A program made the position numbers and the translations under genes. The notes below the pieces were generated by a model, which saw nothing but the letters and a program-made list of their open reading frames with translations, was not told the DNA's origin and searched no databases. From the NCBI GenBank assembly GCA_040905805.1, contig JBBDQS010000048.1, positions 1 through 32,000 on the forward strand: a DNA stretch of 32,000 bases, written 5' to 3'. This document shows, piece after piece, positions 5,457 through 26,084 of the stretch (position 1 is its first letter; each line of letters starts with the position of its first letter). The DNA is from Egibacteraceae bacterium. GTDB lineage: Bacteria > Actinomycetota > Nitriliruptoria > Euzebyales > Egibacteraceae.

Positions 5457-5480
5457 CAACCACAGACAGGAGGAGATCCG

Positions 5481-7823: not shown

Positions 7824-7832
7824 ACCTCGGCG

Positions 7833-9380: not shown

Positions 9381-9395
9381 GAAGGAGCGCCCAAC

Positions 9396-9926: not shown

Positions 9927-9959
9927 CGACGTCAACCGAATCGAGTCGCGGGAGCAGCC

Positions 9960-10855: not shown

Positions 10856-10926
10856 CGGTGCCGGCGGGTTAGACTCCAAGGCGCGAGAAGGGCGGTCGGC
10901 GTCGGGTGCCGGCGGGAGGGGGCTCC

Positions 10927-11157: not shown

Positions 11158-12350
11158 CAACCAGCGCAAAGCGCGTGCTGATCATCGGCGGCGGCATCGG
11201 CGGGACCGCGGCAGGGGTGGCGCTGCGGCAGGCCGGGCTCGACGCGCAGGTGTTCGAACGGTCCCCTGATCTTGCCCGGACCCATGTCGGCGGTTGCTAC
11301 GTCCTGTGGTTCGCGGGCGTGATGTCGTTGTCCCAGCTCGGTCTCGCGGACAAGGTCCATGCGCGCGGGCACCCGGTCACGCGCTTCGAGATGTGCGGCG
11401 CGAACGCCCGCGTGCTGAGCGCCGCCGACGTCGGCGAGCACGGACAGTCGCTCGGGGTGATGCCGGTGGCGGTCCGCCGGGCCGACCTCCTCGGTGTGCT
11501 CACCGACGCGCTCGACAAGGACGCGCTGCACCTCGGCGCGACCTTCCGGGATGTGGTGCAGGACTCGGTCACGGTGACCGCCACGTTCACCGACGGACGC
11601 CGGGAGAGCGGCGACGTCCTCGTCGGCTCCGACGGGCTCGACTCGTCCGTGCGCGCCCACCTGCACGGTCTCGAGCCGGCCCGACATCCCGGGTACGCCC
11701 ACTGGTCGGCGATCGCGGACGGCGACGGCGGCGCGCCTCCAGGGGTGTTCCGCGTCCTGCACGGCGACGGCGCCCGGTTCGCGTTCTTCCACATCGGTGA
11801 CGGGCGGGTGTGCTGGTGGTGCGTCCGCAACGCCCCGCCGGGACCGGCAGGTGACCGCTACGGCGACTACGACGAGCTGACCTCGTTCTTCCGCGGGTGG
11901 GACCCGACAGCCGCCGCGCTCCTGGCGGCGACCCCCCCGAAGGCCATCCACCGGCGTGACACGCTCGACCGGCCGCCGCTGCGCCGCTGGGGTCGCGGCA
12001 GGGTCACGTTGCTCGGCGACGCCGCGCACGCCATGACCTTCGACCTCGGCCAGGGCGCCGGCACGTCCCTGACGGACGCGGTCACCCTGGCCGCCCACCT
12101 GTCCGACAAGCCCGTGCTCGCCGGGCTGCGCACCTACGAGGACCTGCGGCGCTGGGTCACCACACCGCTGGTGCGGATGTCGCGGCTGGTCGGCGCCGCC
12201 TCCTCGTGGGACTGGCCGTTGGGCCCCAAGCTGAACGAGGCCTTCGTGGCCGCAGGCCGGCGGGGAGGGACGGTCGGGGCCCTGAAGCGCGACCTGCGGG
12301 GGCACCCGGCGATGCTGACCGAACGAGGAGGCGAACGTGCCGACACCTGA
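11154..12350 (+). CDS. FAD-dependent aromatic-ring monooxygenase (group A flavoprotein hydroxylase, UbiH/salicylate-hydroxylase-like)
   Basis: Motifs present: GxGxxG 'VLIIGGGIGGTAAG', 'VLVGSDGLDSSVR' (DG motif) and 'LLGDAAHAMTFDLGQGAGTSLTDA' (GD motif). Confidence 0.85.
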   Translation: MTTSAKRVLIIGGGIGGTAAGVALRQAGLDAQVFERSPDLARTHVGGCYVLWFAGVMSLSQLGLADKVHARGHPVTRFEMCGANARVLSAADVGEHGQSLGVMPVAVRRADLLGVLTDALDKDALHLGATFRDVVQDSVTVTATFTDGRRESGDVLVGSDGLDSSVRAHLHGLEPARHPGYAHWSAIADGDGGAPPGVFRVLHGDGARFAFFHIGDGRVCWWCVRNAPPGPAGDRYGDYDELTSFFRGWDPTAAALLAATPPKAIHRRDTLDRPPLRRWGRGRVTLLGDAAHAMTFDLGQGAGTSLTDAVTLAAHLSDKPVLAGLRTYEDLRRWVTTPLVRMSRLVGAASSWDWPLGPKLNEAFVAAGRRGGTVGALKRDLRGHPAMLTERGGERADT

Positions 12351-12843
12351 GGAGAACAAGGCGGTCATCCGCCGCTACCTCGAAGAGGCCTGGAACCGGG
12401 GCGACTGGACGGTCGCGGAGGAGGTCGTCGCCGAGGACGCGGTCTTCCACGACCAGGTCCGGGAGGGCGAGCTGCCACCCGGCCGGGAGGGCGTGCGCGT
12501 CGCCATGGAGCGGGTCCGCACCGGGATGCCCGACATGACCATGGACATCCACGAGGTCGTCGCCGAAGGCGACATGGTCGTCGTGCGTTGGAGCGCGACG
12601 GCAACCCAGGCGGGGCCCTTCAACGGCATCCCGCCGACCGACCGTGTCGCCACGCTGCACGCCATCAGCATGGTCCGCATGAAGGACGGACGCATCGTGG
12701 AGGGCTGGCAGGAGGCGGACAGGATGGGGCTGGCCCAACAGCTCGGGCTCATGCCCAAGGGGCAGATGCCCCGCCCGGTGGCCGGTGCGCTGGCCTTCGG
12801 GATCCGCTGCAAGGACCGCCTGGCCCGGCGGCGCCGGCGCTAG
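12337..12843 (+). CDS. SnoaL-like (NTF2-fold) protein with a basic C-terminal tail, paralog of 9396-9926
   Basis: GAGGAGG lies upstream of GTG 12337, which overlaps the monooxygenase gene by 14 nt. 'NKAVIRRYLEEAWNRGDW...AVFHD' and 'VVAEGDMVVVRWS...MKDGRIVEGW' are present. The tail is 'QLGLMPKGQMPRPVAGALAFGIRCKDRLARRRRR'. Confidence 0.7.
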   Translation: MPTPEENKAVIRRYLEEAWNRGDWTVAEEVVAEDAVFHDQVREGELPPGREGVRVAMERVRTGMPDMTMDIHEVVAEGDMVVVRWSATATQAGPFNGIPPTDRVATLHAISMVRMKDGRIVEGWQEADRMGLAQQLGLMPKGQMPRPVAGALAFGIRCKDRLARRRRR

Positions 12844-12844
12844 C

Positions 12845-13927
12845 TCATGCGGGGGTGGCGGCGGTCCAGTCGACGACGACGCCTGCGTAGATCCACTTGG
12901 TCGCCTCCACACCGATGAGCACCACCCGCTGTTCGGGTTGGATCATGCCCCTGCGCCACGCGTGGTCGAGGAACAGCGGCACCGCCGCGGAGCCGCAAGC
13001 CCCGGTCATGGCGAGGTTGTCGAAGATCTTGCCCTCCATCGCCTTCCACTCGTCGGTCAGCAGACCGTGCTCGGCAAGCGAGTCGAGCATCCACCCGACG
13101 TTGCCCTCGGGGATCAGGCACCAGTCGACGCTCTCGGCGGCGATGCCGCTGCGGCCGAGGGTGTCCGCGAGCGAATCCACCACCATCTGCGGGGTGAAGT
13201 CGCCGGCGCCGACCACGTCGACCTGGAGGTCGACCAGGCGCTTCCTGCTCAGCTGCTCGTGGATCGGCGCGTGCGTGCCGCCACCGATCGAGTGGATCCC
13301 CGCCTTCCTGGTGCCACCGATGGCGCACTGCGCCGAGCCGATGATCCCGCCCTGGTCGCTGTCGGTGGCCTGTAGCACGAAGGCTCCGGCCCCGTCCCCG
13401 AACATGTACAGGGGCAGCCGGTCACGCATGCGGATCTTGTTCGGGTCCTTGCCCACGAACACCGGAGCCATGACCGGCGAGATCGCCTCGCTGCCCACGA
13501 CGAGGGCGAACTCGTGGTCACCGCGCTCCAGCATCATCCGCGCGATGTCGAGCCCCTGGACACCGCCCGCGCCCCCGGACCGCAGCTCCATGGTGGCGCA
13601 GCGCTCGAGACCGAGCCGCTCCTGCAGCAGGTTCACACACGCGGGCAGGTGGTACTCGGGGGTCCCGGTGGACTGGATCATCAGGCCGAGCTGACCCGCT
13701 TCGACCCCGGCGGTCTCCAAGGCCCTGACCGTCGCCTTGTAGGCCATGTCGGTGTTGCTCTCGTGGTGCTCGCCGGTCTCGGGGTCGATCATCCAGTACC
13801 GCTGCTGGATCGAGATGCCCTCCTGCACGTCGGGGGAGAGCGACCCGACCAACCGCTCGATCTGGTCGTTGTCGATCGGGTCACCGGGCTGGTAACCCCC
13901 CGTGCCGATGATGTGCACCCTGCCCAT
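12845..13927 (-). CDS. KAS-III (FabH)-fold protein lacking the canonical Cys-His-Asn triad
   Basis: By eye it is collinear with E. coli FabH ('FGDGAGAFVL', 'LVVGSEAIS', 'SAAVPLFLD'). The three catalytic positions read Gly ('ELRSGGAGGVQGL'), Pro/Glu ('DWCLIPEGNVGW') and Ala ('MTGACGSAAVP'). Confidence 0.8.
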   Translation of the reverse strand: MGRVHIIGTGGYQPGDPIDNDQIERLVGSLSPDVQEGISIQQRYWMIDPETGEHHESNTDMAYKATVRALETAGVEAGQLGLMIQSTGTPEYHLPACVNLLQERLGLERCATMELRSGGAGGVQGLDIARMMLERGDHEFALVVGSEAISPVMAPVFVGKDPNKIRMRDRLPLYMFGDGAGAFVLQATDSDQGGIIGSAQCAIGGTRKAGIHSIGGGTHAPIHEQLSRKRLVDLQVDVVGAGDFTPQMVVDSLADTLGRSGIAAESVDWCLIPEGNVGWMLDSLAEHGLLTDEWKAMEGKIFDNLAMTGACGSAAVPLFLDHAWRRGMIQPEQRVVLIGVEATKWIYAGVVVDWTAATPA

Positions 13928-14111
13928 GCTGCCCGCTTTCGCTCAAAGGCCCGGCGGCCATGTTCCCCCTCCGCCTCATGAGGGTCAAGGCCCATCCGTT
14001 CCGTCGCAGCCCGTAGACGGGCGTCGCGGCCGGGTGTAGGTTCCGGTGGTTGGGGCCGGGGGACTGTCGCACGGTGATGGGCGGCCCTGGGGCGAGGGAA
14101 AGGTGGGGCAC

Positions 14112-14600
14112 ATGGCTGTGCAACAGGCGCCAGACTTCACGATCGGCCACCTCGAAGGTCATACGGTGAGCCTGAGCGACCACCCGGGGAAGAAGGTGGT
14201 GATGTTCGCGGCGCGCAACAGCGCTGACCAGGCGAAGCAGGCGACCCAGGCGATCCGCCAGCGCTACGACGCCGAGGAGTTGCCGGTCCTGCTGATCGTC
14301 GACGTCAGCAGCCTCCCGCGGGTGATGCATCGTGTCGCCAAGTCGCAGCTGAAGAAGGGCTACGCCGAGGCCGTCGAGATGGCGAAGGCCGACTACGCGC
14401 AGCAGGGGAAGGCCTTTCCCGCGGATGCGTCCAAGGTCGTGGTCATGCTGCCGGACTACGACGGCTCGGTCACGGCCGGCTTCGACGTGGGCGACGTCGA
14501 CAAGGCGGCGGTCGCGGTGCTCGTGGACGAGGGCGGCAAGGTGCTGGGCAGCGCGTCAGGCCCCGGGGCCGGCGAGCAGATCCTTCAGCTGCTCGGCTGA
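14112..14600 (+). CDS. Thioredoxin-fold (redoxin/AhpC-TSA-like) protein with no cysteine
   Basis: ATG 14112 lies inside track ORF 14046..14600, after GGGAAAGGTGGGG. 'APDFTIGHLEGHTVSLSDHPGKKVVMF' is the usual redoxin N-terminus. The following CxxC/TxxC position reads 'AARNSADQ', and the whole protein has no Cys. Confidence 0.5.
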   Translation: MAVQQAPDFTIGHLEGHTVSLSDHPGKKVVMFAARNSADQAKQATQAIRQRYDAEELPVLLIVDVSSLPRVMHRVAKSQLKKGYAEAVEMAKADYAQQGKAFPADASKVVVMLPDYDGSVTAGFDVGDVDKAAVAVLVDEGGKVLGSASGPGAGEQILQLLG

Positions 14601-14603
14601 CCG

Positions 14604-14645
14604 CCGGTCGCCGTCGACCGAGGTTGTCCCGGTCGCCGTCGACCG
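14604..14645. promoter_or_regulatory. Two perfect copies of CCGGTCGCCGTCGACCG (each an internal CGGTCG-N4-CGACCG palindrome), 25 bp apart
   Basis: The copies at 14604-14620 and 14629-14645 are identical. They lie in the 90-bp gap between the redoxin-fold stop (14600) and the halogenase-like ATG (14691). I propose them as a candidate operator for a dimeric regulator. Confidence 0.35.
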
Positions 14646-14690
14646 GCAGTCCGGGCTCTGGTACCTCCGGCGGACGGGGAGGAGGAAGAC

Positions 14691-16109
14691 ATGCCATCGG
14701 GGGGGAGTGGTGGGGCGGCCGAGGACTCGGCGCGTCTGGTGGATGTGGCCGACGAGGTCGCCGATGTGGTCGTGTTGGGTGGTGGGCTGGCGGGTTTGAG
14801 CCTTGCGTTGCAGCTGCGGCGGGCTGCGCCTGGGCTGTCGGTGGTGGTCGCCGAGCGTCGGGCGTATCGGCCGAGGTCGGCGGCGTTCAAGGTCGGTGAG
14901 TCGACGTCGGAGGTCGGGGCGCACTACTTCGCGAACGTGTTGGGCTTGGGTGAGTATCTGCGGGAGGCGCAGGTCCGCAAGAACGGGTTGCGCTTCTTCT
15001 TCTCTGCGGGGGGCAACCTGGACATCGCCGAGCGTGTCGAGTTCAGCACGCCGTTGCACCCGCAGATTGCGACCTACCAGCTTGACCGGGGCCTGTTGGA
15101 GAACACGTTGTGGGACCGCAACCGGGCGGAAGGCAGCGTGGTGCTGCGCGGTTGCCGGGTCGAGGACGTCGAGCTCTCGGCCGACGGGCATCGGGTCAGC
15201 CTGCTGCAGGGCGCGCCGCTTCGCGACCAACCATCTGGCCGGGCAGGGGTACTGGGTGTGGTTGATCCAGCTGGCGTCGGGGCCGATCAGCATCGGGGTG
15301 TGCGCGGACCCGCGGTTCCACCCGTTCGGGCGGATCGCGTCGCTGGAGGCGTTCGTGGACTGGTTGGGTGAGCACGAGCCGCAGTTGGCCGCGACGCTGG
15401 ACAGCCGCCGCGACGAGGTCATGGATTTCCTCACGGTCGAGGACGTCGCGTACGGCACCGGTCAGATGTACTCGCCCGACCGGTGGTGTCTGACCGGTGA
15501 GGCGGGGTTACCTGAACCCTGAACCTCTACGCCGACCAGTACGCCCTCTACGGCAACACCCAGGTCATGGTCGCCAAGCTGACCTTCGACACGCTGCTGT
15601 ACTGGTCGGTGATGTGCCAGTACTTCCTTCACGACAAGTGGGACGACCTCGAGTGGCTCCCCGCCAACATCCCCGAGGTCGACGTCGCCGCGCTGATGGC
15701 ACGCGTCCAACGGTTCTTCCGGGAGTGGCACGAGCTGGAGCCGCGTCGCTGGCGGGACGCGCTCGTCCCCGTGGCCGACTTCCTGCCGTTGCACGACCGG
15801 CAGGTCGACATGGCCACGCCGCTGGACGACGACGATGCGCTGGCGGGTCGCCTCGCCGAGGGCTTCGACGTGGTGCTGTGCCTGGTGGTGGCGCTCTTCC
15901 ACAAGGCGCTGGAGCTGTTGCCCGACCAGCACATCGACCCGGACACGCGCATTCAGCCGCTGGCCGTGGGCCTCGATCCCGGCGCGTGGGAGGCCGACGG
16001 ACTGTTCGACGACGGCGGCATCTCGCTGGCCGAGGCACTGGAGCGCCTCCCCGGCATCGAGGCGATCTGGCTCGACCGCTACGCCAAACCCGTCGAGGAC
16101 GAGGGGTGA
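14691..16109 (+). pseudogene. Flavin-dependent halogenase-like (Trp_halogenase family) gene, disrupted in at least two places
   Basis: Homology runs through three frames. Frame 0 (14691-~15218) has 'VVVLGGGLAGLS' and 'FKVGESTSEVG'. Frame 1 (~15217-15519) has 'NHLAGQGYWVWLIQL' and 'RWCLTGEAG', then TGA. Frame 0 again (15516-16109) has 'LYADQYALYGNTQVM...'. Confidence 0.65.
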
Positions 16110-16116: not shown

Positions 16117-16968
16117 TCAGCCCTCGACGGCGGCGTCGAGGTGGTTGAGTGCGAAGAACTCGTCGGTGACGAACAGTGCCTCCCGGATCTGCTCCCTCGT
16201 GCTGCGGCTGTGCAGGGCCGTCAGCTCCGCCCGCCCGTCGGGATAGCGCATGATCGCCTTCACGGTCGACGCGTCGACCCGCAGCTCGTTCCAGGACGGG
16301 GGCACGAGACCGCGGAGCCGCGCCGTCGCCGCAGTCGAGCAGTTGGCCACCAGCGTCCCCCCGAGCGACCAGAAGAAGGGGACGTGGCGGTGGCCGGTGA
16401 GGACGATGTCCACCTCGAGGTCGCTGATCAGGGTGAGCACGTCCCCGGCGTCGTTGACGACGCTCATCTCACGACCCGAGCCGGGGATGGGCAGGACGTG
16501 ATGGTGCAGGAGCAGGATCTTGAGATCGTCGGGCCGGTCGAACTGCTCGCGGATCCACACGTACCACTCACGGCCGATATGGCCCTCCTCGAGGTCAGGT
16601 TGCGAGGAGTCGAGCCCCACCACGGTGATGCCGGACAGGCGGAGGCGCTCGCTCCGCAGCGGTTCGAGCTCCAGCCGCCGGCGCAGGAAGCGGCCACCGA
16701 AGTGGCGGAGGAAGTGGACGTAGCCGACGTTGCGTGAATCGTGGTTGCCCGGGACCACCACCGTGGGGGCCGTCAGCTGTGCCAGCCAGGAGACCGCCTC
16801 CTCGTACTCCCATGCGTAGCCGCTGGCCGTGAGGTCGCCGGCGACGAGCACGACGTCGGGTTCACTGCTGTTGACCTGGGCGACGACGTCGGCCAGCAGC
16901 CGGGGGCGGAACGTCGGCTCGCCGCAGTGGATGCTGCCCAGGTGGGCGATCCGCACCGGCTCGATCAT
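16117..16968 (-). CDS. Metallophosphoesterase (calcineurin-like), motif-I Asp replaced by Ser
   Basis: ATG at 16968 lies inside track ORF 16117..17211, with GGAGAGGAG upstream. Motifs: 'HLGSIHCG' (expected DxH), 'VAGDLT', 'VPGNHD', 'LLLHHHV', 'TGHRHVP'. Confidence 0.85.
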   Translation of the reverse strand: MIEPVRIAHLGSIHCGEPTFRPRLLADVVAQVNSSEPDVVLVAGDLTASGYAWEYEEAVSWLAQLTAPTVVVPGNHDSRNVGYVHFLRHFGGRFLRRRLELEPLRSERLRLSGITVVGLDSSQPDLEEGHIGREWYVWIREQFDRPDDLKILLLHHHVLPIPGSGREMSVVNDAGDVLTLISDLEVDIVLTGHRHVPFFWSLGGTLVANCSTAATARLRGLVPPSWNELRVDASTVKAIMRYPDGRAELTALHSRSTREQIREALFVTDEFFALNHLDAAVEG

Positions 16969-16994
16969 TGTGGGCTCCTCTCCCGCACCCGGCG

Positions 16995-17840
16995 TCAGGC
17001 GACCGGATTGGACACGCGGAACGCCTCCGTGAGGTAGAACGCCTCGCGGATCAGCTCCCGGGTGGTGCGGCTGCGGATCACCGACAGGCTGCGATGCCCG
17101 GTCTCGTAGTGCATGAACACCTTGATCGTCGACGCGTCCACCTGGATCTCGTTCCACGACGGTGGGGTCAGCCCGCGCAGCCGGCGGGTCGCCGCCGTCC
17201 CGGAGTTGCACACCAGGAGCCCGTTGAGCGCCCAGAAGAACGGGACGTGCTTGTGGCCGGACAGGACGAGGTCGACGCCGAGGTCCGTGAGCAGCTCCAG
17301 CAGCTCGCCGGCATCGGCGATCGTGTTGCGCTCACGCCCGGTGCCGGGGATCGACACCAGATGGTGGTGCAGGACGAACACCTTGAGGTCGTCGGCGTGA
17401 TGGAACTGGTCGCGTATCCAGTCGTAATGCGGGGCGCCGACCTCTCCCTGGTTGACGTCGGCCTGGGACGAGTCCACGGCGACGACCGTGAGGCCGCCGG
17501 CCCGGATGCGCTCCGCTCGCTCCGGCGACAGCGGCAGCCGCAGGGCGCTGAACCGCGCGCCGAAGTGCCGTTCGAAGTGCACGTTGCCGAGGTTGCGCGC
17601 GTCGTGGTTGCCGGGCACGACGACGACCGGCGCCTCCAAGCGACCGATCCATCCGGCGGCCTCCGCGAACTCCTCGCCGTAGCCGGCGGCCGTGAGGTCA
17701 CCCACCACGGCGACGGCGTCTGGGCGCAGGGCGTTGATCCGCTCCACGGCCTGCTCCAACAGGGAGGCTTCGAACGTCGGGGTGCCGCAGTGGATATCGC
17801 CAAGCTGAGCTATGCGCAGTGGATGGTCGGTCACTGCCAT
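16995..17840 (-). CDS. Metallophosphoesterase (calcineurin-like), all five motifs intact; candidate class-III-type phosphodiesterase
   Basis: ATG at 17840 lies inside track ORF 16995..18407. Motifs: 'LGDIHCG', 'VVGDLT', 'VPGNHD', 'FVLHHHL', 'SGHKHVP'. It is collinear with the 16117-16968 product, with roughly half the residues identical by eye. Confidence 0.85.
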   Translation of the reverse strand: MAVTDHPLRIAQLGDIHCGTPTFEASLLEQAVERINALRPDAVAVVGDLTAAGYGEEFAEAAGWIGRLEAPVVVVPGNHDARNLGNVHFERHFGARFSALRLPLSPERAERIRAGGLTVVAVDSSQADVNQGEVGAPHYDWIRDQFHHADDLKVFVLHHHLVSIPGTGRERNTIADAGELLELLTDLGVDLVLSGHKHVPFFWALNGLLVCNSGTAATRRLRGLTPPSWNEIQVDASTIKVFMHYETGHRSLSVIRSRTTRELIREAFYLTEAFRVSNPVA

Positions 17841-17924
17841 GTGGCCCTGCCCGCGCGCTCCGTCGGTGTGGGGCATGCACCCCGGATGATCCCGTATTCT
17901 CGCACCGAGAGGGAGGTGGAGGCC

Positions 17925-18383
17925 GTGGTGCGTCGTATCACGCACAGTCTGGTCAAGGCGCTCCGTCAGGTCCGGGAGTTCGCGGGGCTGTCGGATGCCG
18001 CTCTCCTCGAGGTCGTCGGGGCATCGGTGAACCTCTTCTTCCCGGCTGGTGCGGTGGTCTTCCGCAAGGGCGCCACATCCGATGGCCTGTACGTCGTCCT
18101 GTCCGGGCGGGTGATCGTCGCCGACGAGCCCGGTGGGCCGGAGGTTGCCCAGATCGGCCCGGGAGACTACTTCGGTGAGCAGTCCCTCCTCCTGGAGACC
18201 ACGCGGTCGCACAGCGTCGCGGCTGTGCAGGACGCTGAGATCCTCGTGCTGCCGGCGAGCTCGTTCCAGCGGCTGCTCGAGGGCAACCCGGTCCTGGCGG
18301 GCCAGGTCGAGGACAAGCTCCGAGCCCGCCTTGCGGCCACGGACGGTCCGGGCAGCGCGGGACAGGGTCCTGCAGCCGGATGA
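17925..18383 (+). CDS. Stand-alone cyclic-nucleotide-binding (CNB) domain protein, no DNA-binding domain
   Basis: This is the 3' third of track ORF 16968..18383. 'FPAGAVVFRKGATSDGLYVVLSGRV...IGPGDYFGEQSLLLETTRSHSVAAV' has the CNB beta-roll and phosphate-binding cassette. GGGAGGTGGAGG precedes GTG 17925; ATG 17886 is an alternative start. Confidence 0.8.
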   Translation: MVRRITHSLVKALRQVREFAGLSDAALLEVVGASVNLFFPAGAVVFRKGATSDGLYVVLSGRVIVADEPGGPEVAQIGPGDYFGEQSLLLETTRSHSVAAVQDAEILVLPASSFQRLLEGNPVLAGQVEDKLRARLAATDGPGSAGQGPAAG

Positions 18384-18410
18384 CCGCCGGTGGGGAGTCC
18401 TGCCCACGCC

Positions 18411-18929
18411 CTAGTCCCGCAGGTACCCGTACCGGCCCCGGTGGAAGATCAAGGGCCGGGGCGCATCCGCATCGGCGCCGATGGCGAGCACCTCACCGAC
18501 GAAGATCTCATGGTCTCCGCCCGGATGCTGGTCCGCCACCCTGCAGTCCATGAACGCGGCCACCCCATCGATGACCGGCGAGCCTGTGACCACCTCGCGG
18601 TGGGGGATCCCGCGGAAGGCGGCGGTGCCCCTGGGGCGATCACGAGACGCGAAGTAGTTGGACAGGACCTCCTGCTCGGCGGTCAGGATGTTGACCGCGA
18701 ACACCCCATTGCGCTCGAGAGCCTCGCTGCCCTGCGTGCCGCTGATGACGCACACGAGGATGAGGGGCGGGTCGAGGGACAGCGACGAGAAGGCATTGGC
18801 GGTCATCCCGTACGGCTCGTCCTGACCCTGCGTGGTGATGACCGTCACGCCGGTTGCGAAGGCCCCCATGACCGCCCGGAACTCCTTGACGCCGAAGGGC
18901 TCCACGGCCAGCTGCTGCAGCCTCTGCAT
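18411..18929 (-). CDS. NAD(P)H-flavin reductase (flavin_reduct domain, HpaC-like)
   Basis: 'FRAVMGAFATGVTVITT...PYGMTANAFSSLSLDPPLILVCV' and 'GDHEIFVGEVL' are typical of small flavin reductase components. The ATG shares one base with the upstream stop (TGATG at 18927-18931). Confidence 0.85.
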   Translation of the reverse strand: MQRLQQLAVEPFGVKEFRAVMGAFATGVTVITTQGQDEPYGMTANAFSSLSLDPPLILVCVISGTQGSEALERNGVFAVNILTAEQEVLSNYFASRDRPRGTAAFRGIPHREVVTGSPVIDGVAAFMDCRVADQHPGGDHEIFVGEVLAIGADADAPRPLIFHRGRYGYLRD

Positions 18930-19819
18930 CAGGCATCTGCCCCAGCGTGCGACGGCCCCCCGCCGAGCTCCCCGAGGCGGCGCTGGATGACGTCGTCGAG
19001 GTTTTGCGTGGTGGACAGCGACTGGGCGACCAGCGACCGGAATGCCTCCCGCGGCATCGCCAAGAGCGTCGTTGGGGCCACTGCCCGAACCGTGGCGGTG
19101 CGGGGGATGTCGCGCAGGATCGCCACCTCGCCGAAGAACTGCCCCGGCCCGAGGGTGGCCACCGTCTGTTGCGAACCGCCGTTCTCGCGGACGACCTCGA
19201 CCTCGCCTTCGACGATGATGAAGAACTTGTCGGCCGGCCCCCCCTGCCGGACGATGACCTCCCCGGACTCCACCTGCACGGTCTGCAGCCGGGCCTGGAG
19301 GCCGGCGATCTCGGCCGGCGGCAGGTCCCGGAGGACGTTGAAGACCTCGGTGCGCTGGAACACCGACCCGAGACCCCTCGCGTTCTCCGGCGCCGCGCTC
19401 GTGTTGTCGATGAACTGCACCCGGGTGGGCGCGATGCGGAAGAACGCGATGTGGCTGTTCTCGGTCCCCGCCACCTCGGGGAACTTCACGCCGAACCGCT
19501 GCACGGCGTGCTCGATCTGCGCGGCGTCGAGGATCTGGCGGGCCTCGCCCTCGCCCTGGATGCCCTTGGTCTGCGTCCAGTCAGCGGTGTACTGGTCGAC
19601 CGTGAAGGACACGGCCGGGTTCTGGTCGATGTGCTGGGCGGTGACGGAGTCCGGCCGGGTCCACACGTACAGCGTCAACCCGTCGCTCGCGTACAGCAGC
19701 GTCGCGGCGTGCGGCAGACCGCCCGACGATGCCGTGGCCAGGGTCAAGGTCTGCTGGGACTCCAGGTATGCCAGCGCCTTGGGCGAGACCTCGGGTGCGG
19801 CATCCTCCGGATCGGTCAT
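18929..19819 (-). CDS. Fusion protein: PNPOx-like FMN-binding split-barrel domain + C-terminal cNMP-binding domain
   Basis: The N-terminal half has 'TLTLATASSGGLPHAATLLYASDGLTLYVWTRPDSVTAQHIDQNPAVSFTV' (pyridoxamine-5'-phosphate-oxidase-like). The C-terminal half has 'VESGEVIVRQGGPADKFFIIVEGEV...LGPGQFFGEVAILRDIPRTATVRA' (CNB). GGAGGGGG lies upstream of the ATG at 19819. Confidence 0.8.
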   Translation of the reverse strand: MTDPEDAAPEVSPKALAYLESQQTLTLATASSGGLPHAATLLYASDGLTLYVWTRPDSVTAQHIDQNPAVSFTVDQYTADWTQTKGIQGEGEARQILDAAQIEHAVQRFGVKFPEVAGTENSHIAFFRIAPTRVQFIDNTSAAPENARGLGSVFQRTEVFNVLRDLPPAEIAGLQARLQTVQVESGEVIVRQGGPADKFFIIVEGEVEVVRENGGSQQTVATLGPGQFFGEVAILRDIPRTATVRAVAPTTLLAMPREAFRSLVAQSLSTTQNLDDVIQRRLGELGGGPSHAGADA

Positions 19820-19865
19820 GGCGTCCCCCTCCAGGAGCGTCGTGCTCGTACCCTATCGCAGCACC

Positions 19866-22343
19866 TCAGATGGCCGTACGGCGCCGCAGCACCAGCCAGG
19901 TGATGGCGGTGAAGGCCACGATGAAGGCACCCATGATGAGCCAGTTCTGCCAGATGGCGCGGGAGAAGCTGTCGCTGTACTGCAGCGCCAACGCCGCTCC
20001 CACGGGGTTCTGGGACTCCTCGAAGAGGTCGAGGAGGTTGGCTGCCCTGCCGAGAGCCTCGAACCCCCACCGCAGTGCGATGATATTGGAGAGCTCGCGA
20101 CCGACGGTGTTCATCTCGGACACCGCGACGATCGCTCCCGACAGCAGCACCTGCGGCAGGATCCACGCCGACAGCAGGTCGGTCGCCACCTGCGACGTGG
20201 GCGCGATGGCCGACGTAAACAGCGAGAAGGCCAGTCCGACCAGGGCGATGACGAAGAGCGTGATCATCAGGGGGGCGTACACGTTCAAGCCCTCGTCGGG
20301 CAGGCGGTCGGTCACCCACATCATCGCCACCATGACCGTGACCGCCAGGGCGAGCACGGGCGCGAGGAACGTGGTCTTCGACAAGAGGTAGGGGAAGACG
20401 GCGAGATTCACCAGCCGCTCTCGTCGGAAGATGGCGAACTCCTTCACGATCTCCTGCACGCCGTACAGCAGGCCGAAGAGGAAGGCGGTCATCGACAGGA
20501 AGAAGAGCAGCTGGAACGCCGACGTGGGGTTGTTGGGCCCCGGTTCGAAGAGGTCCGTGCGGAACAGCGCGATCAGCAGGGCGGCGAAGATCACCGGCTG
20601 GGCGAAGAGCGGGATCATCCGGGGTGGGTTGCGCACGTACAGCTCGGCGGTGCGACGGCTCAGCACGGCGAACTGGCGGACCCACAAGCCCAAGCCGCGA
20701 GCGGGCCGCGCGATCGAGGCCCCCGCCGCGGCCTGCGCGGGCGTCGAATCGGCCGGTCGCTGTTGGTCGGCCTTCATCGCACGGTACTCGGGGGATTCCC
20801 GGAAGCGCGCCGCCCACTCCTCCGGCGTGCCCTCGTTCTCCAGCTTCACGTAGATCTCGTCGAAGACCTCCACGCCGAAGTACTCCAACGCCCGCTTGGG
20901 GGGACCGGCGAATGCCAGGTGGCCGCCGCCTGCGAGGAACACGATCTTGTCGCACAGGCCGACGTTGCTCGTCGCGTGCGTGGTGAGGAGCACGGTGCTG
21001 CCCGCTCGTGCCAGGTCGCGCATCAGCGTCATCATCGAGGCGTCGGTGGCGGGGTCCAGACCTGAAGTGGGCTCGTCGAGGTAGAAGACCCGGGGTCGGG
21101 TCAACAGCTCCACCCCGATGCTGGCCCGCTTGCGCTGCCCGCCGCTCAGCTTGTCGACGCGAAGACCGGCCTGCTCGGTCAGCGAGAGCTCTTCCAGAGC
21201 CCGGTCGACGGCTTTGCCCCGCTCCTCGGGCGTGGTGTCGCCCGGCAGGCGCAGACGCGCGGCGAAGTCCAGCGTGACCCGCAGGGGTAGCTCGGTGTGG
21301 ATGATGTCGTCCTGCGGCACGTACCCGAGCGTCGTGCGGTACAGGGCCCGCTGCGCGTAGTAGTCGCCGCCGTTGTACAGCACCTGCCCGCCGGTGGCGG
21401 GGCGCACGCCCGAGAGGGCGTCCATGAGGGTGCTCTTTCCCGCCCCGCTGCCACCGACGATCGCCACGAGCTCGCCGGGCAGCACCGTCAGCGAGACATT
21501 CTGGAGGAGGTTCTTGCCCTTCGTGACCACCTTGCGCAGCCCGGACGCGTCGATGCGGATCCCGCGTGGTTCCGTGACCCGTTGCAGCTCGCGCCGGTCG
21601 AACAGCAGACGCTGGTCCGCCAACCAGATCTGGTCCCCGTCCTTGAGCTCGGCACGTCGGACCTCCGCGCCGTTCAGGAAGGTGCCGTTCGCGCTGCCGA
21701 GGTCGGCCAGCTCGTAGCTGTCGCCGAAGCGGCGCACCACCGCGTGACGGGCCGACACGACGGTGGAGTCCAGCACGACGTCGTTGTCAGGATGGCGCCC
21801 GATCCGCAGCTCCTGGCGATCCGCGAGCATGGCCGCGAGGTTCAGGTGCTCGATCGCGTACTCCTGCGAGGTGCGGCTCCGAAGCTCGGCCGCCTGCTGG
21901 ACGGCTTCCGCGAGCGCAGGTTGCTGCTCCAGCAGCTGCCGGAAGTCGTTCGCGCCGATCATCCACAGCCGAGCAGCAGTCTCCGCACGCACCGTGGCGC
22001 TGCGGGGCTGGCCGCTGGTCAGGGACATCTCGCCGAAGAACTCCCGGGGCCCCAAGCGAGCGATCGTCTTCGGTGGATCGCCGGAGCCGGCCTGGACCAG
22101 GAGCGTCCCGAGCTCGATCAGGTAGGCCGCGTCGCCGGCGTCACCCTCGCGGACCACGACGTCTCCTGCCGCGACGTCAACGGGCCGCAGCAGCTTCGCG
22201 ACGTCGGGCAGCGACAGGGGGGACAGCAGCTGGAAGATGCCGATCCTGCTCAGCATGTCGATGCGACGGCTGTCGCTTGCCGCCGCCCTGGTCGGGATGG
22301 AAGTCGTGGCGTGGAATGGTGGTTTGTGTTCCTGCCCGACCAT
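19866..22343 (-). CDS. ABC half-transporter (NBD + ABC-2-type TMD) with an N-terminal cNMP-binding + FHA module
   Basis: ATG 22343 has GGAGG 6 nt upstream; the track uses TTG 22349. CNB: 'FFGEMSLTSGQPRSATVRA'. FHA: 'RIGRHPDNDVVLDSTVVSARHAVV...LGSANGTFLNG'. Walker A 'GGSGAGKST', signature 'LSGGQRKR', Walker B 'VFYLDEPTSGLD', followed by about 6 TM helices. Confidence 0.9.
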   Translation of the reverse strand: MVGQEHKPPFHATTSIPTRAAASDSRRIDMLSRIGIFQLLSPLSLPDVAKLLRPVDVAAGDVVVREGDAGDAAYLIELGTLLVQAGSGDPPKTIARLGPREFFGEMSLTSGQPRSATVRAETAARLWMIGANDFRQLLEQQPALAEAVQQAAELRSRTSQEYAIEHLNLAAMLADRQELRIGRHPDNDVVLDSTVVSARHAVVRRFGDSYELADLGSANGTFLNGAEVRRAELKDGDQIWLADQRLLFDRRELQRVTEPRGIRIDASGLRKVVTKGKNLLQNVSLTVLPGELVAIVGGSGAGKSTLMDALSGVRPATGGQVLYNGGDYYAQRALYRTTLGYVPQDDIIHTELPLRVTLDFAARLRLPGDTTPEERGKAVDRALEELSLTEQAGLRVDKLSGGQRKRASIGVELLTRPRVFYLDEPTSGLDPATDASMMTLMRDLARAGSTVLLTTHATSNVGLCDKIVFLAGGGHLAFAGPPKRALEYFGVEVFDEIYVKLENEGTPEEWAARFRESPEYRAMKADQQRPADSTPAQAAAGASIARPARGLGLWVRQFAVLSRRTAELYVRNPPRMIPLFAQPVIFAALLIALFRTDLFEPGPNNPTSAFQLLFFLSMTAFLFGLLYGVQEIVKEFAIFRRERLVNLAVFPYLLSKTTFLAPVLALAVTVMVAMMWVTDRLPDEGLNVYAPLMITLFVIALVGLAFSLFTSAIAPTSQVATDLLSAWILPQVLLSGAIVAVSEMNTVGRELSNIIALRWGFEALGRAANLLDLFEESQNPVGAALALQYSDSFSRAIWQNWLIMGAFIVAFTAITWLVLRRRTAI
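21597..22256 (-). repeat. Copy A of a ~0.66-kb dispersed direct repeat encoding the CNB+FHA module (in the ABC gene)
   Basis: It is collinear at DNA level with 25329-25994. For example, 21611-21654 'gctggtccgccaaccagatctggtccccgtccttgagctcggca' matches 25342-25385 'gctggtccgccagccggatctggtcaccgtccttgagctcggcc'. Confidence 0.7.
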
Positions 22344-22493
22344 GCTCAACCTCCATCAAACGACCCTGATGGCGGACCTCCGTTTGCGGACAGGAACCGC
22401 CCTGAGTTCCCCGACAGGCTTGCCCCGCGTGCAGGTCGGATCGTAGCGCCTCGGAGCCGTCAGGCACAGGTCTGATCCGTTCCTATCCGTGCG

Positions 22494-25400
22494 TCAGCCC
22501 GGGGCAACGGGATCACGGCTCACCAGCGCCAGCAGGGATGGCAGGACCAGCAGCGAGGCTGCCAGCGCCAAGAAGATCATCACCGCCGTGAGCAGGCCAT
22601 ACGAGGCAAAAAGGGGCATGGGCGCGAGGGCGAGGATGCCGAAGCCGAGCATGCTCGAGAGCGCCGACGCCCCGAGCGCCAGGCCGGTGCTGGCCCCGGT
22701 CGCCCGCAGCGCCGCCTCGCGGGTGGAGAACTGGGCGATCTCCTCCCGGTAGCGCATGGTGATGTGGATGGCGAAGTCGATGCCGATGCCGATGGAGATG
22801 GCCCCGATGGTCGCGGTGACGAGGTTGATCGTGAACCCGAACGCGTACATGAACGCGTATAGCCACGCGACGACGAGCAGGATCGGCACGATGCTCACGA
22901 CCGCGTAGCGCAGGCTGCGCATGAAGATCGCGGCGACGAGCAAACAGAGCACGATCGCGATCGGCAGGGAGATCTGCAACGCCCGGGCGATGGCGTCGAG
23001 GCTGGCCTGCCGCGCGAACGGCGCACCGGTCAGCACCGCTGTCGCGGCGGGGTCGATGGCCTGCAGGCGATCCTCCAGGTCGGCCACGAGCGGCTCGAGC
23101 TGGGTCCGGGCCGCCTCGACGCCCTCCTGCCCGCGGGTACCCGTGATCGGGAAGTCGACCCTGCTTGCCTGCGTCTCCCCATCCGGCGACTGGTACAGCA
23201 CCTCCCCGACGGCGTCGGGGGTCCGTGCCAGCCGCGCCTCGTCGGCGGCCACACCGGCCTCGAGCACGGTCGTGTAGACGGCCGCCAGCTGCTCGGCGGT
23301 GTCGGGAAGGCCATCCCCGTCGTCGTCGGTCAGCTCCACACCAGCCGATGCGGCGACGGCCGCGGCGGCGGCAGGGGCCTCGGCGACATCCCGGACGACG
23401 CCGAGGACGCCGTCCTCGAGCTGCACCCTGCCGTCGTCGTCGCGGGCCAGGGCCGGGCTGTCGGCGGCGTGGATCGCATCGACGAACTCCTGCACGGCCG
23501 TGAGCGCGCGAGGATCGGTGAGGTCGCCCTCGAGATACACGATCCCCGGCTCCCCGACGGACCCGGCGAAGTGCTCGTCGATCTTGTCCAGCCCCACGAC
23601 GAAGTCGCTGTCCGGCGTGAAGAAGTCGTTGACGTCGAACTCGGCCGGGACCTGCACCGCGAAGAAGGCACATCCCACCGTGATGCCCAACACGACCGGC
23701 AGCAGCGCCACCCGGTAGCGTGCCAGGCCGGCGACGACGCCACCGAGCGTGGTGGCCAAACGCCCGGGGTCGCTGGCGCGCGGCTCGGACGTCGCCGGCT
23801 CGGTGACCGCACCGTCGGCGGTCACCGGCTGCGGCGATGCGGCCGCGCGACCCGCGATGACGCAGGGGGCGACCAGGAAGGCCACGATGTACAGGCCCAG
23901 CAGGGCGACACCCGCGGCGGGCAGGACGAAGGCGCTCAGCACGACCGACCCCATCGCGGCCCCGGATGCCAGCACCGACCCGACGACGGCCAGCAGCCGC
24001 CGGCGCGGAGACCGCGGTGCCGGCCCGACACGCTCCTCGACGCGCATGAGCACGACCGGGGCCACGATGCCGAGGACCAGGAACGCGGAGAGCAGCCCGA
24101 GCGATGCGGCGATGCCGAACTGCACGATCGACTGGATCCCCGACGACACGTTGGCGAGGAAGGCCGCCGCGTCGGAGCTGAGCGCGAGGACCAGTGCACC
24201 CATCACCCCGCTCATGCCCAGGAGCAGCCCCACCCTCGGGGTCGTGCCGGCTGCCCGCACCTCCTTGTAGCGGCCGAACGCATGGAAGGCGAAGTCCACC
24301 CCGAACGAGATCATCGCGATCGGCACGATGGTGCTGAGGATCTGGTCGGCCTCCATGCCGAGCAGATTGGACAGGCCGTTCAGCCAGACGATCAGCGTCG
24401 CGAGCCCGCCGCCGACGATGGCGACCGGCCAGTAGGACCGGTAGGTCAACCCCACGATGAACAGGACGCCGAGGATCGCGAAGCCGATGAAGGGCCCGGC
24501 TGCCTGCCCCTGCTCCGCGCTGGTGAGGTTCACGTCGATCGCGATGCCCCACGTGCGGCTGTGGGCCTCGCCGCCTTCGAGCACCTCGACGACGTCGCGG
24601 GCGAACTCCTCCTTGGTCGTGTCGTCCACGCCGATCGTGGCCCCGGCCGGCGGCCCCCCGACGGCGTCGTCGTCGGCGAGCACGACGAAGCTGGTGGCCG
24701 GCACCAGCCAGTCGCCGGTGTCCGGGTCGCGCGTCGACTGTGCCGACAGCCCCAGCTCGGCGATCCCCGCGTCCTCGATCAGCCGGCTTGCCGCCGACCG
24801 GACGTCCGCGTCGTTGGCTGCGGCCAAGCCGCCGATGCCGGTCTGCCGGAGCTCGGCGTCCACCATGTCGGCGATCGTGTGGAGGCCGTCCACCTCCATG
24901 TCGGCCTGCGGATCGAAGAAGGACCACAGCTTGGGGCCGATGTCGGGATCGTCGCGCAGGGCCTGGCCGTTGGCGAGCAGTTCCGCAAGGGGTTCGGCGC
25001 GCAGCAGGTCGCCGTCACGGGCCTCCACCACGAATGGGATGAGGAACGTGGGCGACGCGAACCGCTCGTTGACGAAATCGCGGGCCGTGAACACCTCCCC
25101 GGCGGGCTCCTGCGACGCGAAGCCGTCCGGGGGCAGCGCGAGGAACGGGACGGCGAGCAGGGCGGTGGCCGCCAACGCCAGCGCGATGACGATCCCCGAG
25201 CGGCGGGCCATCCAGCGCACGAGCCGCGACGGCTCGTCGGGGTCCCGCTTCGGGACGACCGGCTCGGGGCCAGCCGGCTCCGGCGAAGGGGTCTCACGGC
25301 GCTGATCGCCTCGCTTGAGCCCGCGGACGTCGAAGACGAGGCGCTGGTCCGCCAGCCGGATCTGGTCACCGTCCTTGAGCTCGGCCACGCGCACGGGTGC

Positions 25401-26084
25401 GCCGTTCACGAACGTCCCGTGGGCGCTGCCGAGGTCCGACAGCTGGTAGCCGTCCCCGAACTGACGGACGACCGCATGCTGGGCGGAGACGGCCGGCGCG
25501 TCGAGCACGAGGTCGTTGTCGGGATGGCGGCCGATGCGCAGCTCGTCGCGTTCGGCCACATCGGAGGCCAGGTTGCGGGGGCCCTCCGCGGGCTTCCCCT
25601 GCTCGCTGGAGCTGGCGCGTAGTGCCGCCGTCTGACGCAGGCCGCGCGCCAACCCCGGCTCGCGTTCGAGGAGACGCTGGACGTCCGTGGCACCGATGGC
25701 CCACAGGCGCGCGGCGGTCTCCGCCCGCACGGTGGCGCTGCGCGGCTGGTCGTTCACGAGGGCCATCTCCCCGAAGAACTCCCCGGGGCCCAGCCGGGCG
25801 ATGGGCTCCCGCTGCTCGCCGGCTTCGGGCTCGACCAGCACGGTGCCCTGCTCGATCAGGTAGAGGGCGTCACCGGTGTCGCCCTCCCGCACCACGACCC
25901 GACCGGCGGTCACCTCGATGGGTCGCAGGAGCTCGGCGACGTCGGTCTGCGACAGCGGCGACAGCAGCTGGAAGACCGCCACCCGACTGAGCATCTGCAC
26001 CCGTCGCGGCAGGTCCGTGGCCTCCGGCGTCAGCGGGATGGCACTCGTGGCCTTCTCCGGGCGCTGCTCCTCCCGTCCGACCAT
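22494..26084 (-). CDS. MMPL/RND-superfamily transporter (12 TM, two large extracytoplasmic loops) with an N-terminal cNMP-binding + FHA module
   Basis: ATG 26084 has GGAGGG about 6 nt upstream; the track start at 26171 adds an Arg-rich leader. CNB: 'FFGEMALVNDQPRSATVRA'. FHA: 'RIGRHPDNDLVLDAPAVSAQHAVV...LGSAHGTFVNG'. Two 1+5 TM bundles follow ('ISFGVDFAFHAFGRYKE', 'GIGIDFAIHITMRYREE'). Confidence 0.85.
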   Translation of the reverse strand: MVGREEQRPEKATSAIPLTPEATDLPRRVQMLSRVAVFQLLSPLSQTDVAELLRPIEVTAGRVVVREGDTGDALYLIEQGTVLVEPEAGEQREPIARLGPGEFFGEMALVNDQPRSATVRAETAARLWAIGATDVQRLLEREPGLARGLRQTAALRASSSEQGKPAEGPRNLASDVAERDELRIGRHPDNDLVLDAPAVSAQHAVVRQFGDGYQLSDLGSAHGTFVNGAPVRVAELKDGDQIRLADQRLVFDVRGLKRGDQRRETPSPEPAGPEPVVPKRDPDEPSRLVRWMARRSGIVIALALAATALLAVPFLALPPDGFASQEPAGEVFTARDFVNERFASPTFLIPFVVEARDGDLLRAEPLAELLANGQALRDDPDIGPKLWSFFDPQADMEVDGLHTIADMVDAELRQTGIGGLAAANDADVRSAASRLIEDAGIAELGLSAQSTRDPDTGDWLVPATSFVVLADDDAVGGPPAGATIGVDDTTKEEFARDVVEVLEGGEAHSRTWGIAIDVNLTSAEQGQAAGPFIGFAILGVLFIVGLTYRSYWPVAIVGGGLATLIVWLNGLSNLLGMEADQILSTIVPIAMISFGVDFAFHAFGRYKEVRAAGTTPRVGLLLGMSGVMGALVLALSSDAAAFLANVSSGIQSIVQFGIAASLGLLSAFLVLGIVAPVVLMRVEERVGPAPRSPRRRLLAVVGSVLASGAAMGSVVLSAFVLPAAGVALLGLYIVAFLVAPCVIAGRAAASPQPVTADGAVTEPATSEPRASDPGRLATTLGGVVAGLARYRVALLPVVLGITVGCAFFAVQVPAEFDVNDFFTPDSDFVVGLDKIDEHFAGSVGEPGIVYLEGDLTDPRALTAVQEFVDAIHAADSPALARDDDGRVQLEDGVLGVVRDVAEAPAAAAAVAASAGVELTDDDGDGLPDTAEQLAAVYTTVLEAGVAADEARLARTPDAVGEVLYQSPDGETQASRVDFPITGTRGQEGVEAARTQLEPLVADLEDRLQAIDPAATAVLTGAPFARQASLDAIARALQISLPIAIVLCLLVAAIFMRSLRYAVVSIVPILLVVAWLYAFMYAFGFTINLVTATIGAISIGIGIDFAIHITMRYREEIAQFSTREAALRATGASTGLALGASALSSMLGFGILALAPMPLFASYGLLTAVMIFLALAASLLVLPSLLALVSRDPVAPG
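25329..25994 (-). repeat. Copy B of the CNB+FHA-encoding dispersed direct repeat (in the MMPL gene)
   Basis: Same orientation as copy A, about 3.7 kb away. By hand count, about 70 of the first 100 encoded residues are identical, with a single 1-aa offset across the module. Confidence 0.7.

Follow-up and report, generated by a model that had tools for sequence, protein, structure and literature searches.

Cyclic-nucleotide-binding modules beside a type II polyketide-like cluster in an Egibacteraceae bacterium: a candidate control layer on export and flavin supply

Do four cyclic-nucleotide-binding (CNB) domains that lie within ten kilobases of one another, beside a type II polyketide synthase (PKS)-like biosynthetic cluster, belong to one signalling circuit, or are they parts of separate modules that have come to be neighbors? 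The locus that raises this question is a 32,000-nucleotide stretch of DNA from an Egibacteraceae bacterium (GCA_040905805.1, contig JBBDQS010000048.1, positions 1 to 32,000; hereafter the window), in which the CNB domains occupy positions 16117-26084 and the PKS-like cluster, recognized with Pfam, occupies 272..16109. An earlier note on this DNA had proposed a circuit in which a cyclic nucleoside monophosphate (cNMP) made elsewhere gates export and flavin chemistry directly and is degraded locally by two phosphoesterases. The comparisons reported here indicate that 16117-26084 is a lineage-specific mosaic of separately conserved modules, not one conserved island. We designate the modules A (two metallophosphoesterases and a stand-alone CNB protein), B (a PNPOx-CNB protein and a flavin reductase), C (a CNB-FHA-ABC exporter) and D (a CNB-FHA-MMPL exporter). 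We regard it as evenly poised whether the region as a whole is the regulatory, export and flavin-supply arm of the PKS-like cluster, built from these CNB-bearing modules.

Genes were called from the G+C content of third codon positions (GC3; the window has a G+C content of 70%), and these calls agree with independent calls on a public contig, JBBDOK010000007.1 (GCA_040877135.1), calls that cover positions 8929-29819 of the window. Exactly four proteins in 16117-26084 score above the gathering score of the Pfam model cNMP_binding (PF00027, 27.5 bits), and a profile built from their four CNB domains recovers only those four across the 32 kb. The four phosphate-binding cassettes (PBCs) quoted in the earlier note occur verbatim in the translations, and its account of the partners also held up: Pfam detects no helix-turn-helix (HTH) domain attached to any of the four, one of which stands alone while the others are joined to a PNPOx-like domain, an ABC transporter and an MMPL transporter. 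What that account under-reported is an FHA domain on each transporter and the separate flavin reductase gene. Pfam found no Guanylate_cyc, Pkinase, PP2C or HTH domain in the plausible (GC3-supported) genes of the window, and the public-contig gene calls agree, as had been noted for cyclases and for Ser/Thr kinases and phosphatases.

The density of CNB domains exceeds chance. The background was taken from 38 related genome loci that total 712 kb, each with the PNPOx-CNB gene at its center; they contain about 21 extra CNB domains, or roughly 0.3 per 10 kb. The maximum in any of these loci is three within 20 kb, and the Poisson probability of finding three extra CNB domains in 10 kb is about 0.005. 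A promoter and terminator scan of 15500-30500 returned nothing exceeding shuffles, and operon structure is therefore read from spacing alone.

Module B carries the connection to the PKS cluster. Its first gene (18929..19819, minus strand) encodes a 296-aa protein with a PNPOx_N domain (PF01243, 57.5 bits) followed by a C-terminal CNB domain (18965-19339; cNMP_binding, 93.5 bits). Its second gene (18411..18929, minus strand), the start of which overlaps the PNPOx-CNB stop by 1 nt, encodes a 172-aa short-chain NAD(P)H:flavin reductase of the HpaC/StyB/ActVB type (Flavin_Reduct, 149 bits). The PF01613 match covers profile positions 1-152 of 153, which is to say a full-length domain; the NCBIfam models matched are FerA, HsaB, HpaC and StyB, at scores that do not reach their equivalog cut-offs, and the PDB matches are reductase components of two-component monooxygenases. 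The PNPOx-CNB architecture is present in at least 1740 homologue clusters at 55-60% identity, and the PBC residues G230-E231...P239-R240 are invariant across 26 homologues. In an AF2 model the N-terminal domain has the split barrels Rv2991, HutZ, alr5027 and BH0577 as its nearest folds, and the C-terminal domain resembles the CNB-B domain of PKG, with 35% identity.

In 36 of the 38 genome loci the next gene after PNPOx-CNB is a flavin reductase gene, and the set of loci spans Actinomycetota (Gaiellales, Solirubrobacterales, Thermoleophilia, Acidimicrobiia and Euzebyaceae) and Chloroflexota. Reductases of this kind usually provide two-component enzymes with reduced flavin, and the obligate coupling of such a reductase to a split-barrel protein with a CNB domain suggests that the nucleotide gates this supply. 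Halogenase-like or FAD monooxygenase genes occur within 10 kb of PNPOx-CNB in 14 of the loci. Orthologues of the window's PKS cluster genes flank the pair in seven loci (L011, L013, L016, L028, L030, L032 and L036), and in four of them (L013, L028, L030 and L032) the identities are 63-65% for the ketosynthase (KS) fusion KS-KS, 67-69% for KAS III, 69% for SnoaL2 and 67-68% for the F420H2-quinone-reductase-like protein. In L028 the full set of ketoreductase (KR), dehydratase (DH), KS, KS and KS-KS genes is immediately upstream of the pair. Because PKS orthologues recur beside it, the PNPOx-CNB/flavin reductase pair belongs to the PKS cluster and not to a separate signalling island.

Several further observations concern the relatives of module B. 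In L016 two PNPOx-CNB/flavin reductase copies (10001-11343 and 15693-17035) lie 5.7 kb apart with essentially identical scores, representing either a tandem duplication or an assembly artefact. In the Solirubrobacterales loci L023-L027, a convergent PNPOx paralogue without a CNB domain (43-51% identical; about 11400-11940, minus strand) comes right after the flavin reductase, which suggests that the split-barrel domain works with the reductase independently of the sensor. An additional CNB open reading frame recurs at a constant distance, about 2.4-2.8 kb, upstream of PNPOx-CNB in L002, L010, L012, L019, L020 and L037 (Gaiellales and uncultured Actinomycetes). NCBIfam matches to family 2B encapsulin and to Pat were dismissed as identities, as they cover the CNB domain alone.

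Modules C and D are exporters that share an N-terminal CNB-FHA cassette. The first, CNB-FHA-ABC (19866..22343, minus strand), is an 825-aa half-transporter of the ABCG/DrrA type with its CNB domain at 21867-22241 and its FHA domain at about 21621-21806. It scores 71.0 (cNMP_binding), 70.2 (FHA), 97.7 (ABC_tran) and 72.4 bits (ABC2_membrane) in Pfam, and it also matches NCBIfam TIGR00955 and the ABCG2/ABCA nucleotide-binding domains (NBDs) in PDB. The second, CNB-FHA-MMPL (22494..26084, minus strand), is a 1196-aa protein of the MMPL/RND (HAE3) type with its CNB domain at 25605-25979 and its FHA domain at about 25353-25538. Its Pfam scores are 78.1 (cNMP_binding), 68.1 (FHA) and 89.4 bits (MMPL, PF03176, in two stretches), and its NCBIfam matches are the HAE3 model TIGR00921 (155.5 bits; cut-off 351.9) and the actII MMPL family. 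The PBC arginine is present in 18 of 19 CNB-FHA modules, which, with the invariant R240 of the PNPOx-CNB homologues, bears out the description of three of the four cassettes as canonical. The phosphothreonine-binding FHA residues GR/SxxH/NG are preserved in the close CNB-FHA clade, including the window ABC protein.

The CNB-FHA-ABC exporters form a small and rare family. An exhaustive HMMER search with the 258-aa cassette was made against 1.84 billion representatives, and among the best 150 matches about 16 proteins match the whole cassette in a single stretch. Ten of these were scanned. Some are complete CNB-FHA-ABC-ABC2_membrane chains, two of them with RCC1 repeats at the start; the rest are either short CNB-FHA proteins or truncated chains, built as RCC1-CNB-FHA or as CNB-FHA-ABC_tran that lacks the membrane domain. 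None of the best 150 matches places the cassette on an MMPL protein elsewhere. A word-indexed protein search with the same 258 residues returned partial matches, to CNB only or to FHA only. One full-length CNB-FHA-ABC orthologue (57% identity, tblastn) was found in a Euzebyaceae metagenome-assembled genome, L030, and it lies within the orthologous PKS cluster, between an AhpC-like gene and a divergent operon for acyl carrier protein (ACP), phosphopantetheinyl transferase (PPTase) and KS-KS, with PNPOx-CNB and flavin reductase located after KS-KS. The earlier note's suggestion of a link to the PKS block is thus supported for module B in several genomes and for CNB-FHA-ABC in Euzebyaceae.

The origin of the cassette on the MMPL protein can be traced to its neighbor. 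The N-terminal 260 aa of CNB-FHA-MMPL are 63-66% identical to the adjacent ABC cassette and 62% identical to the Euzebyaceae orthologue, and in a tree the MMPL cassette falls inside the ABC clade as the sister of the neighboring ABC cassette. This closer relationship to the neighbor indicates that the MMPL gene acquired a copy of the CNB-FHA cassette within this lineage. The presence of one cassette on two mechanistically unrelated neighboring exporters argues for a shared input.

Module A is organized differently, as two minus-strand phosphoesterase genes that diverge from the stand-alone CNB gene. MPE1 (16117..16968) is a 283-aa metallophosphoesterase (MPE; Metallophos, 72.2 bits) and a divergent tandem paralogue of MPE2, to which it is 57% identical. 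MPE2 (16995..17876; Metallophos, 66.8 bits) is an Icc/CpdA-like, class III-type enzyme and a candidate cNMP phosphodiesterase, of 293 aa from start 17876 or 281 aa from start 17840 (the NCBI call). The stand-alone CNB protein (17886..18383, plus strand) is 165 aa long (152 aa from 17925), has its CNB domain at 17973-18341 (75.9 bits) and no other domain, and finds its best PDB matches in the CNB domains of PKG, PKA-R and MlotiK1. The gap between the divergent genes is 45 or 84 bp if the MPE2 start is taken as 17840, as had been described. All five metallophosphoesterase motifs (D-x-H, GD, GNH[DE], H, GHxH) are intact in MPE2, as GDIH, GDLT, GNHD, HHH and GHKH. Homologues of MPE2 form at least 2659 clusters, named CpdA/Icc automatically by JGI, and the family has a conserved 60-residue C-terminal extension. 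A match to the NCBIfam model "anti-phage phosphoesterase DS9_1" was rejected as a sign of a defence role, being a partial match of 58-60 bits (cut-off 420) of the generic Metallophos kind.

A metagenome scan with the MPE alignment yielded 80 loci, of which 21 belong to a close clade (at least 55% identity) and 59 to a more distant one. Where the close-clade loci extend far enough upstream, 15 of 17 have a small CNB gene (44-54% identical) divergent from the MPE orthologue, and no small CNB gene is found upstream in any of the 59 distant-clade loci. The divergent pair is also present on all three long contigs obtained (L168-L170), 59-61 bp apart, with unrelated flanks. Since it recurs in unrelated contexts, the MPE/CNB pair is an autonomous two-gene unit. 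No tandem MPE copy was found in the 80 metagenome loci, and the MPE1 duplicate was seen only in this organism. A TATCCT-like hexamer (variants TATGGT, TATCGT and TATGCT), probably a -10 box, occurs 40-60 nt upstream of the phosphoesterase start in L090-L107 and L168-L170, and no palindromic shared operator was found in 20 MPE/CNB intergenic regions.

In two other loci cyclase genes lie near the MPE/CNB pair, in one of them together with module B. In the Gaiellales genome L085 (GCA_038237235.1) the order is Pkinase, FHA-Guanylate_cyc-AAA_16, an unrelated YfcE-like MPE, the MPE orthologue, small CNB, PNPOx-CNB and flavin reductase; genes for acetyl-CoA carboxylase, an amine oxidase and an acyltransferase come next. 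The Ser/Thr kinase gene and the 830-aa FHA-Guanylate_cyc-AAA_16 gene (2116-6364) are thus directly upstream of modules A and B, and the FHA-Guanylate_cyc-AAA_16 protein could be a cyclase under kinase control. In L092, CBS, ADH and DUF5939-Guanylate_cyc genes come after the MPE/CNB pair, which puts a cyclase 1.7 kb from the pair. These neighborhoods connect modules A and B with nucleotide cyclases and with phosphothreonine signalling, and they account for the FHA domains. A second CNB-rich island was found in L082 (Logan SRR22405823, 1-19259), where six CNB proteins lie in 19 kb: CNB-FHA-ABC, with a cassette 60% identical to that of the window ABC protein, CNB-aldehyde dehydrogenase, Pyr_redox_2-CNB, CNB-patatin, DUF5995-CNB and an 859-aa protein with a C-terminal CNB domain. 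This island shows that CNB fusions cluster repeatedly, each time with other outputs. A reverse-transcriptase gene adjoins the CNB genes of L082.

The PKS block that precedes module A in the window resembles a type II PKS of the aryl-polyene-like or highly reducing sort, combined with tailoring by SnoaL and anthrone-oxygenase proteins. It encodes KR, an ACP (1237-1647, plus strand), a PPTase (1625-2041, plus strand), two FabA/ApeI-like dehydratases (the second at 3775-4185, plus strand), KS1, KS2, an unusual KS-KS fusion (5481-7823), an amine oxidase, two SnoaL proteins, F420H2-quinone-reductase-like and anthrone-oxygenase-like proteins, an FAD monooxygenase, KAS III, an AhpC-like protein and a halogenase-like protein.

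If the region is indeed an arm of this cluster, the parts might work together as follows. A cNMP, most likely cAMP, would be supplied by one or more class III cyclases encoded outside the window, and would bind the N-terminal CNB-FHA cassettes of the ABCG-type and MMPL/RND exporters. Export would then require or integrate two inputs, the nucleotide on the CNB domain and phosphothreonine written by a Ser/Thr kinase on the FHA domain, in the manner of the control of Rv1747 by PknF. The same nucleotide, bound to the C-terminal CNB domain of the PNPOx protein that is translationally coupled to the flavin reductase, would tune how much reduced flavin reaches the cluster's own flavin-dependent enzymes, the halogenase-like one and the monooxygenase. 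The stand-alone CNB protein could be a third receiver, and its partner, the Icc/CpdA-like metallophosphoesterase, would hydrolyse the nucleotide and reset the signal. The scheme builds on what is observed, namely the domains themselves, the conservation of every module, the neighborhoods that recur and the duplicated cassette; it postulates the ligand, the activity of the phosphodiesterase, the substrate of the exporters and whether the signal activates or represses. It amounts to a plausible post-translational layer of cNMP and phosphothreonine control on a biosynthetic cluster.

A number of findings weigh against this proposal, among them the altered cassettes of the stand-alone CNB family, the lost motif I Asp of MPE1 and the low CpdA score of MPE2, which are described below. 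The complete gene set A-D recurs nowhere else among the genome and metagenome loci compared. The MPE/CNB pair adjoins PNPOx-CNB in one of the 38 genome loci, in a different relative orientation, and module B is present in none of the MPE-centred metagenome loci. Flanks of the MPE/CNB pair are unrelated and housekeeping-like (L090, L095, L168-L170), so that "local" degradation of the nucleotide is doubtful and the pair may serve the whole cell. The ABC homologue of L082 is not beside a PKS, and neither a kinase nor a cyclase is encoded in the window. Split barrels that bind flavin, F420 or haem are all equally close matches to the PNPOx-like domain. Lastly, the halogenase-like gene (14793-16061, plus strand), a proposed recipient of reduced flavin, has two frameshifts: a 585-aa homologue aligns to it in frames 3, 1 and 3 (tblastn). 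The gene is split into two or three calls in all three public assemblies (the JBBDOK010000007.1 contig and two Logan assemblies), and it is either a pseudogene or the result of an assembly error common to all; the full-length homologue has GxGxxG, a variant WxWxIQ motif and a Trp_halogenase match.

Several of these observations suit an explanation without any dedicated circuit, in which independent modules are juxtaposed in a lineage rich in CNB fusions, each reads a cell-wide cNMP pool, the MPE/CNB pair is a general housekeeping unit that is here by chance, and the exporters may have no connection to the polyketide. The scattered contexts of the pair, the PKS-less L082 homologue and the adjacency of modules A and B in only two genomes, with different orientations, speak for this explanation, as does the background of about 0.3 extra CNB domains per 10 kb in related loci. 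On the other side, four CNB domains in 10 kb tops all 38 comparison loci, the adjacency of A and B recurs across two classes and stands beside a cyclase and a kinase in L085, CNB-FHA-ABC and PNPOx-CNB are embedded together in the orthologous PKS cluster of L030, and a cassette has been copied onto the neighboring MMPL gene. We consider mere juxtaposition rather unlikely on this evidence. What the earlier note proposed survives in part: the cNMP theme is real, with a cyclase and a kinase in L085 and a cyclase in L092, and its modules are conserved, but they are conserved separately, the full combination is found only here, and they do not make up one conserved system.

A narrower alternative is that the phosphoesterases are not cNMP phosphodiesterases but belong with the GpdQ-like glycerophosphodiesterases, or with other phosphoesterases whose substrates are lipids or the product, and have the small CNB protein as their regulator. 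By sequence, MPE2 matches GpdQ (3e-9) and Rv0805 (3e-7) in PDB, and the top folds for its AF2 model (pLDDT 80, pTM 0.82) are GpdQ, purple acid phosphatase and Rv0805, so that Rv0805 is no better a match than the other two. The NCBIfam CpdA equivalog PRK11148 (cut-off 225 bits) is far from being reached by MPE2 (36.6 bits) or MPE1 (35.3 bits), which are related to CpdA without being its orthologues. On these low scores and equal matches, MPE2 may act on cNMPs or on another substrate. MPE1, moreover, has GSIH in place of [SG]D[ILM]H at motif I, with the other four motifs intact. The Asp that is replaced is a metal ligand, nearly invariant in a 30-sequence MPE alignment; a motif search finds it in 111 of 120 family members and fails to detect the pattern in the other nine. 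With Ser in its place MPE1 may be impaired, or may be a regulatory pseudo-enzyme. The alternative must contend with the tight, subfamily-specific pairing with a CNB-fold protein, with the cyclases close by in two loci, and with the membership of Rv0805 and GpdQ in one class III-like clade; we judge it quite unlikely. The idea that the phosphoesterases degrade the nucleotide locally thus draws support from this pairing and from GpdQ and Rv0805 as nearest relatives, while its "local" part suffers from the autonomy of the pair.

The weakest alternative, that some or all of the CNB-fold domains sense another ligand (a nucleoside, a 2',3'-cNMP, or a product or intermediate of the cluster) and so provide metabolite feedback and not second-messenger signalling, would fit the altered cassettes of the stand-alone CNB family, the nucleoside binding described for altered-cassette CNB domains of trypanosome PKA (PMC10959531) and the equally weak score of MPE2, 36.6 bits, on both the 3',5'-cAMP phosphodiesterase model and the 2',3'-cNMP phosphodiesterase model SpdA, but it is very unlikely given that three of the four domains have textbook, family-conserved G-E...P-R-[ST]-A-T-V cassettes, that identity to PKG CNB-B reaches 35%, and that cyclase genes are adjacent in L085 and L092. 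The altered cassettes in question have His in place of the PBC Arg in 13 of 15 stand-alone CNB family members (L085, L090-L107), where the motif reads T-x-H-[ST]-[KR] and the second residue after the His is basic. The window protein has Arg, and at about 18220-18240 its residues are T-T-R-S-H-S. This Arg/His swap looks like a compensating pair of positions, and it makes the ligand of the stand-alone protein less certain.

A more specific version of the proposal that the region is an arm of the cluster would recognize two devices, accompanied by a dedicated phosphodiesterase/CNB pair. The first would be a cNMP-gated checkpoint on reduced flavin, formed by PNPOx-CNB and the reductase, acting post-translationally and conserved in a PKS/halogenase cluster family across Actinomycetota and Chloroflexota; the second would be a portable dual-input CNB-FHA gate, transplantable between ATP-driven ABC and proton-driven MMPL exporters. 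With the pair, they would put both tailoring and export of a natural product under a second messenger. We hold this version to be unlikely as a whole.

Discussion of how natural-product clusters are controlled centers almost always on transcription, whereas the sensors at this locus sit on exporters and on a flavin-supply protein. If the proposal is correct, the arrangement would provide a fast protein-level switch for tailoring and secretion, with no need of a transcription factor. Parts of it are of interest by themselves. The PNPOx-CNB/flavin reductase pair is abundant and tightly conserved, no paper describing it was found, and it is a well-defined target for biochemistry. The CNB-FHA cassette offers a natural test of one regulatory module gating two unrelated transport mechanisms, and in the MPE/CNB pair the poorly studied Actinomycetota of soil have a candidate for their general cNMP phosphodiesterase.

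Similar parts are known from other systems. ActVB and SgcE6 are cluster-encoded short-chain flavin reductases, and the actinorhodin cluster contains both a flavin reductase, ActVB, and an MMPL exporter, ActII-ORF3. The window reductase shares the Flavin_Reduct fold and size of HpaC, StyB and BorF, the last a short-chain flavin reductase of a biosynthetic cluster (PMC12363795), and it is clustered with a flavin-dependent halogenase-like gene. It differs in being coupled to a cNMP-sensor PNPOx-like protein, a partner that has not been described for reductases of that type. CNB proteins without an HTH domain are also known from natural-product clusters, as EshA/family 2B encapsulin and as cnbA/cnbB of 2-methylisoborneol clusters (PMC11550324, PMC12159092). 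They are conserved in clusters and work as proteins, not through transcription, as is proposed for the proteins described here, but they are encapsulin shell proteins, while here the CNB domain is fused to exporters and to a flavoprotein, and the NCBIfam encapsulin matches cover the CNB portion only, far below cut-off.

The exporters have their closest counterpart in Rv1747 of Mycobacterium tuberculosis, an FHA-regulated ABC exporter under the control of PknF (PMC3138270, PMC8339232). Both Rv1747 and the window ABC protein combine N-terminal cytosolic regulatory domains, an NBD and an ABC-2-type membrane domain in one polypeptide with canonical phosphothreonine-binding FHA residues, and the Rv1747 FHA structure 6CAH matches the window FHA domain at 2.4e-10. 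Rv1747 carries a pair of FHA domains, and a kinase gene lies next to its own, whereas the window protein has a CNB domain followed by one FHA domain, with no Pkinase in the window; unlike that of Rv1747, the window cassette is also fused to an MMPL transporter. Fusions of CNB domains to AAA/ABC ATPases were already catalogued by Kannan et al. in 2007 as family 16, "AAA_ATPase/ABC" (PMC2246266). In family 16, as in the mycobacterial cAMP-regulated acetyltransferase Pat/Rv0998, to which NCBIfam gives partial matches in the CNB part, a PKA-type CNB domain controls an attached enzyme or transporter allosterically, without transcription. The PBC Arg is described as variable in family 16 and is conserved here, and neither FHA nor pyridox(amine) occurs in the catalogue, which thus holds no CNB-FHA, CNB-MMPL or PNPOx-CNB fusions.

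The class III cNMP phosphodiesterases Rv0805, CpdA and Icc and their relative GpdQ are the best matches of MPE2 in sequence and fold; MPE2 has their calcineurin-like fold, with the five metal-binding and catalytic motifs intact. It differs from them in its identity of about 20%, its scores below the equivalog cut-offs, its C-terminal extension and its obligate small CNB partner, and MPE1 differs further in having lost a metal ligand. The earlier note knew of no described system with this composition. That holds for the CNB-FHA cassette, its presence on MMPL, the PNPOx-CNB/flavin reductase pair and the MPE/CNB pair, all undescribed in the literature as far as we searched, but not for the CNB-ABC/AAA fusions (PMC2246266) or the FHA-ABC exporters (PMC3138270). 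Each kind of part at this locus (CNB-effector fusion, FHA-ABC exporter, class III phosphodiesterase and cluster-embedded CNB protein) is already known, and the combination is not categorically new.

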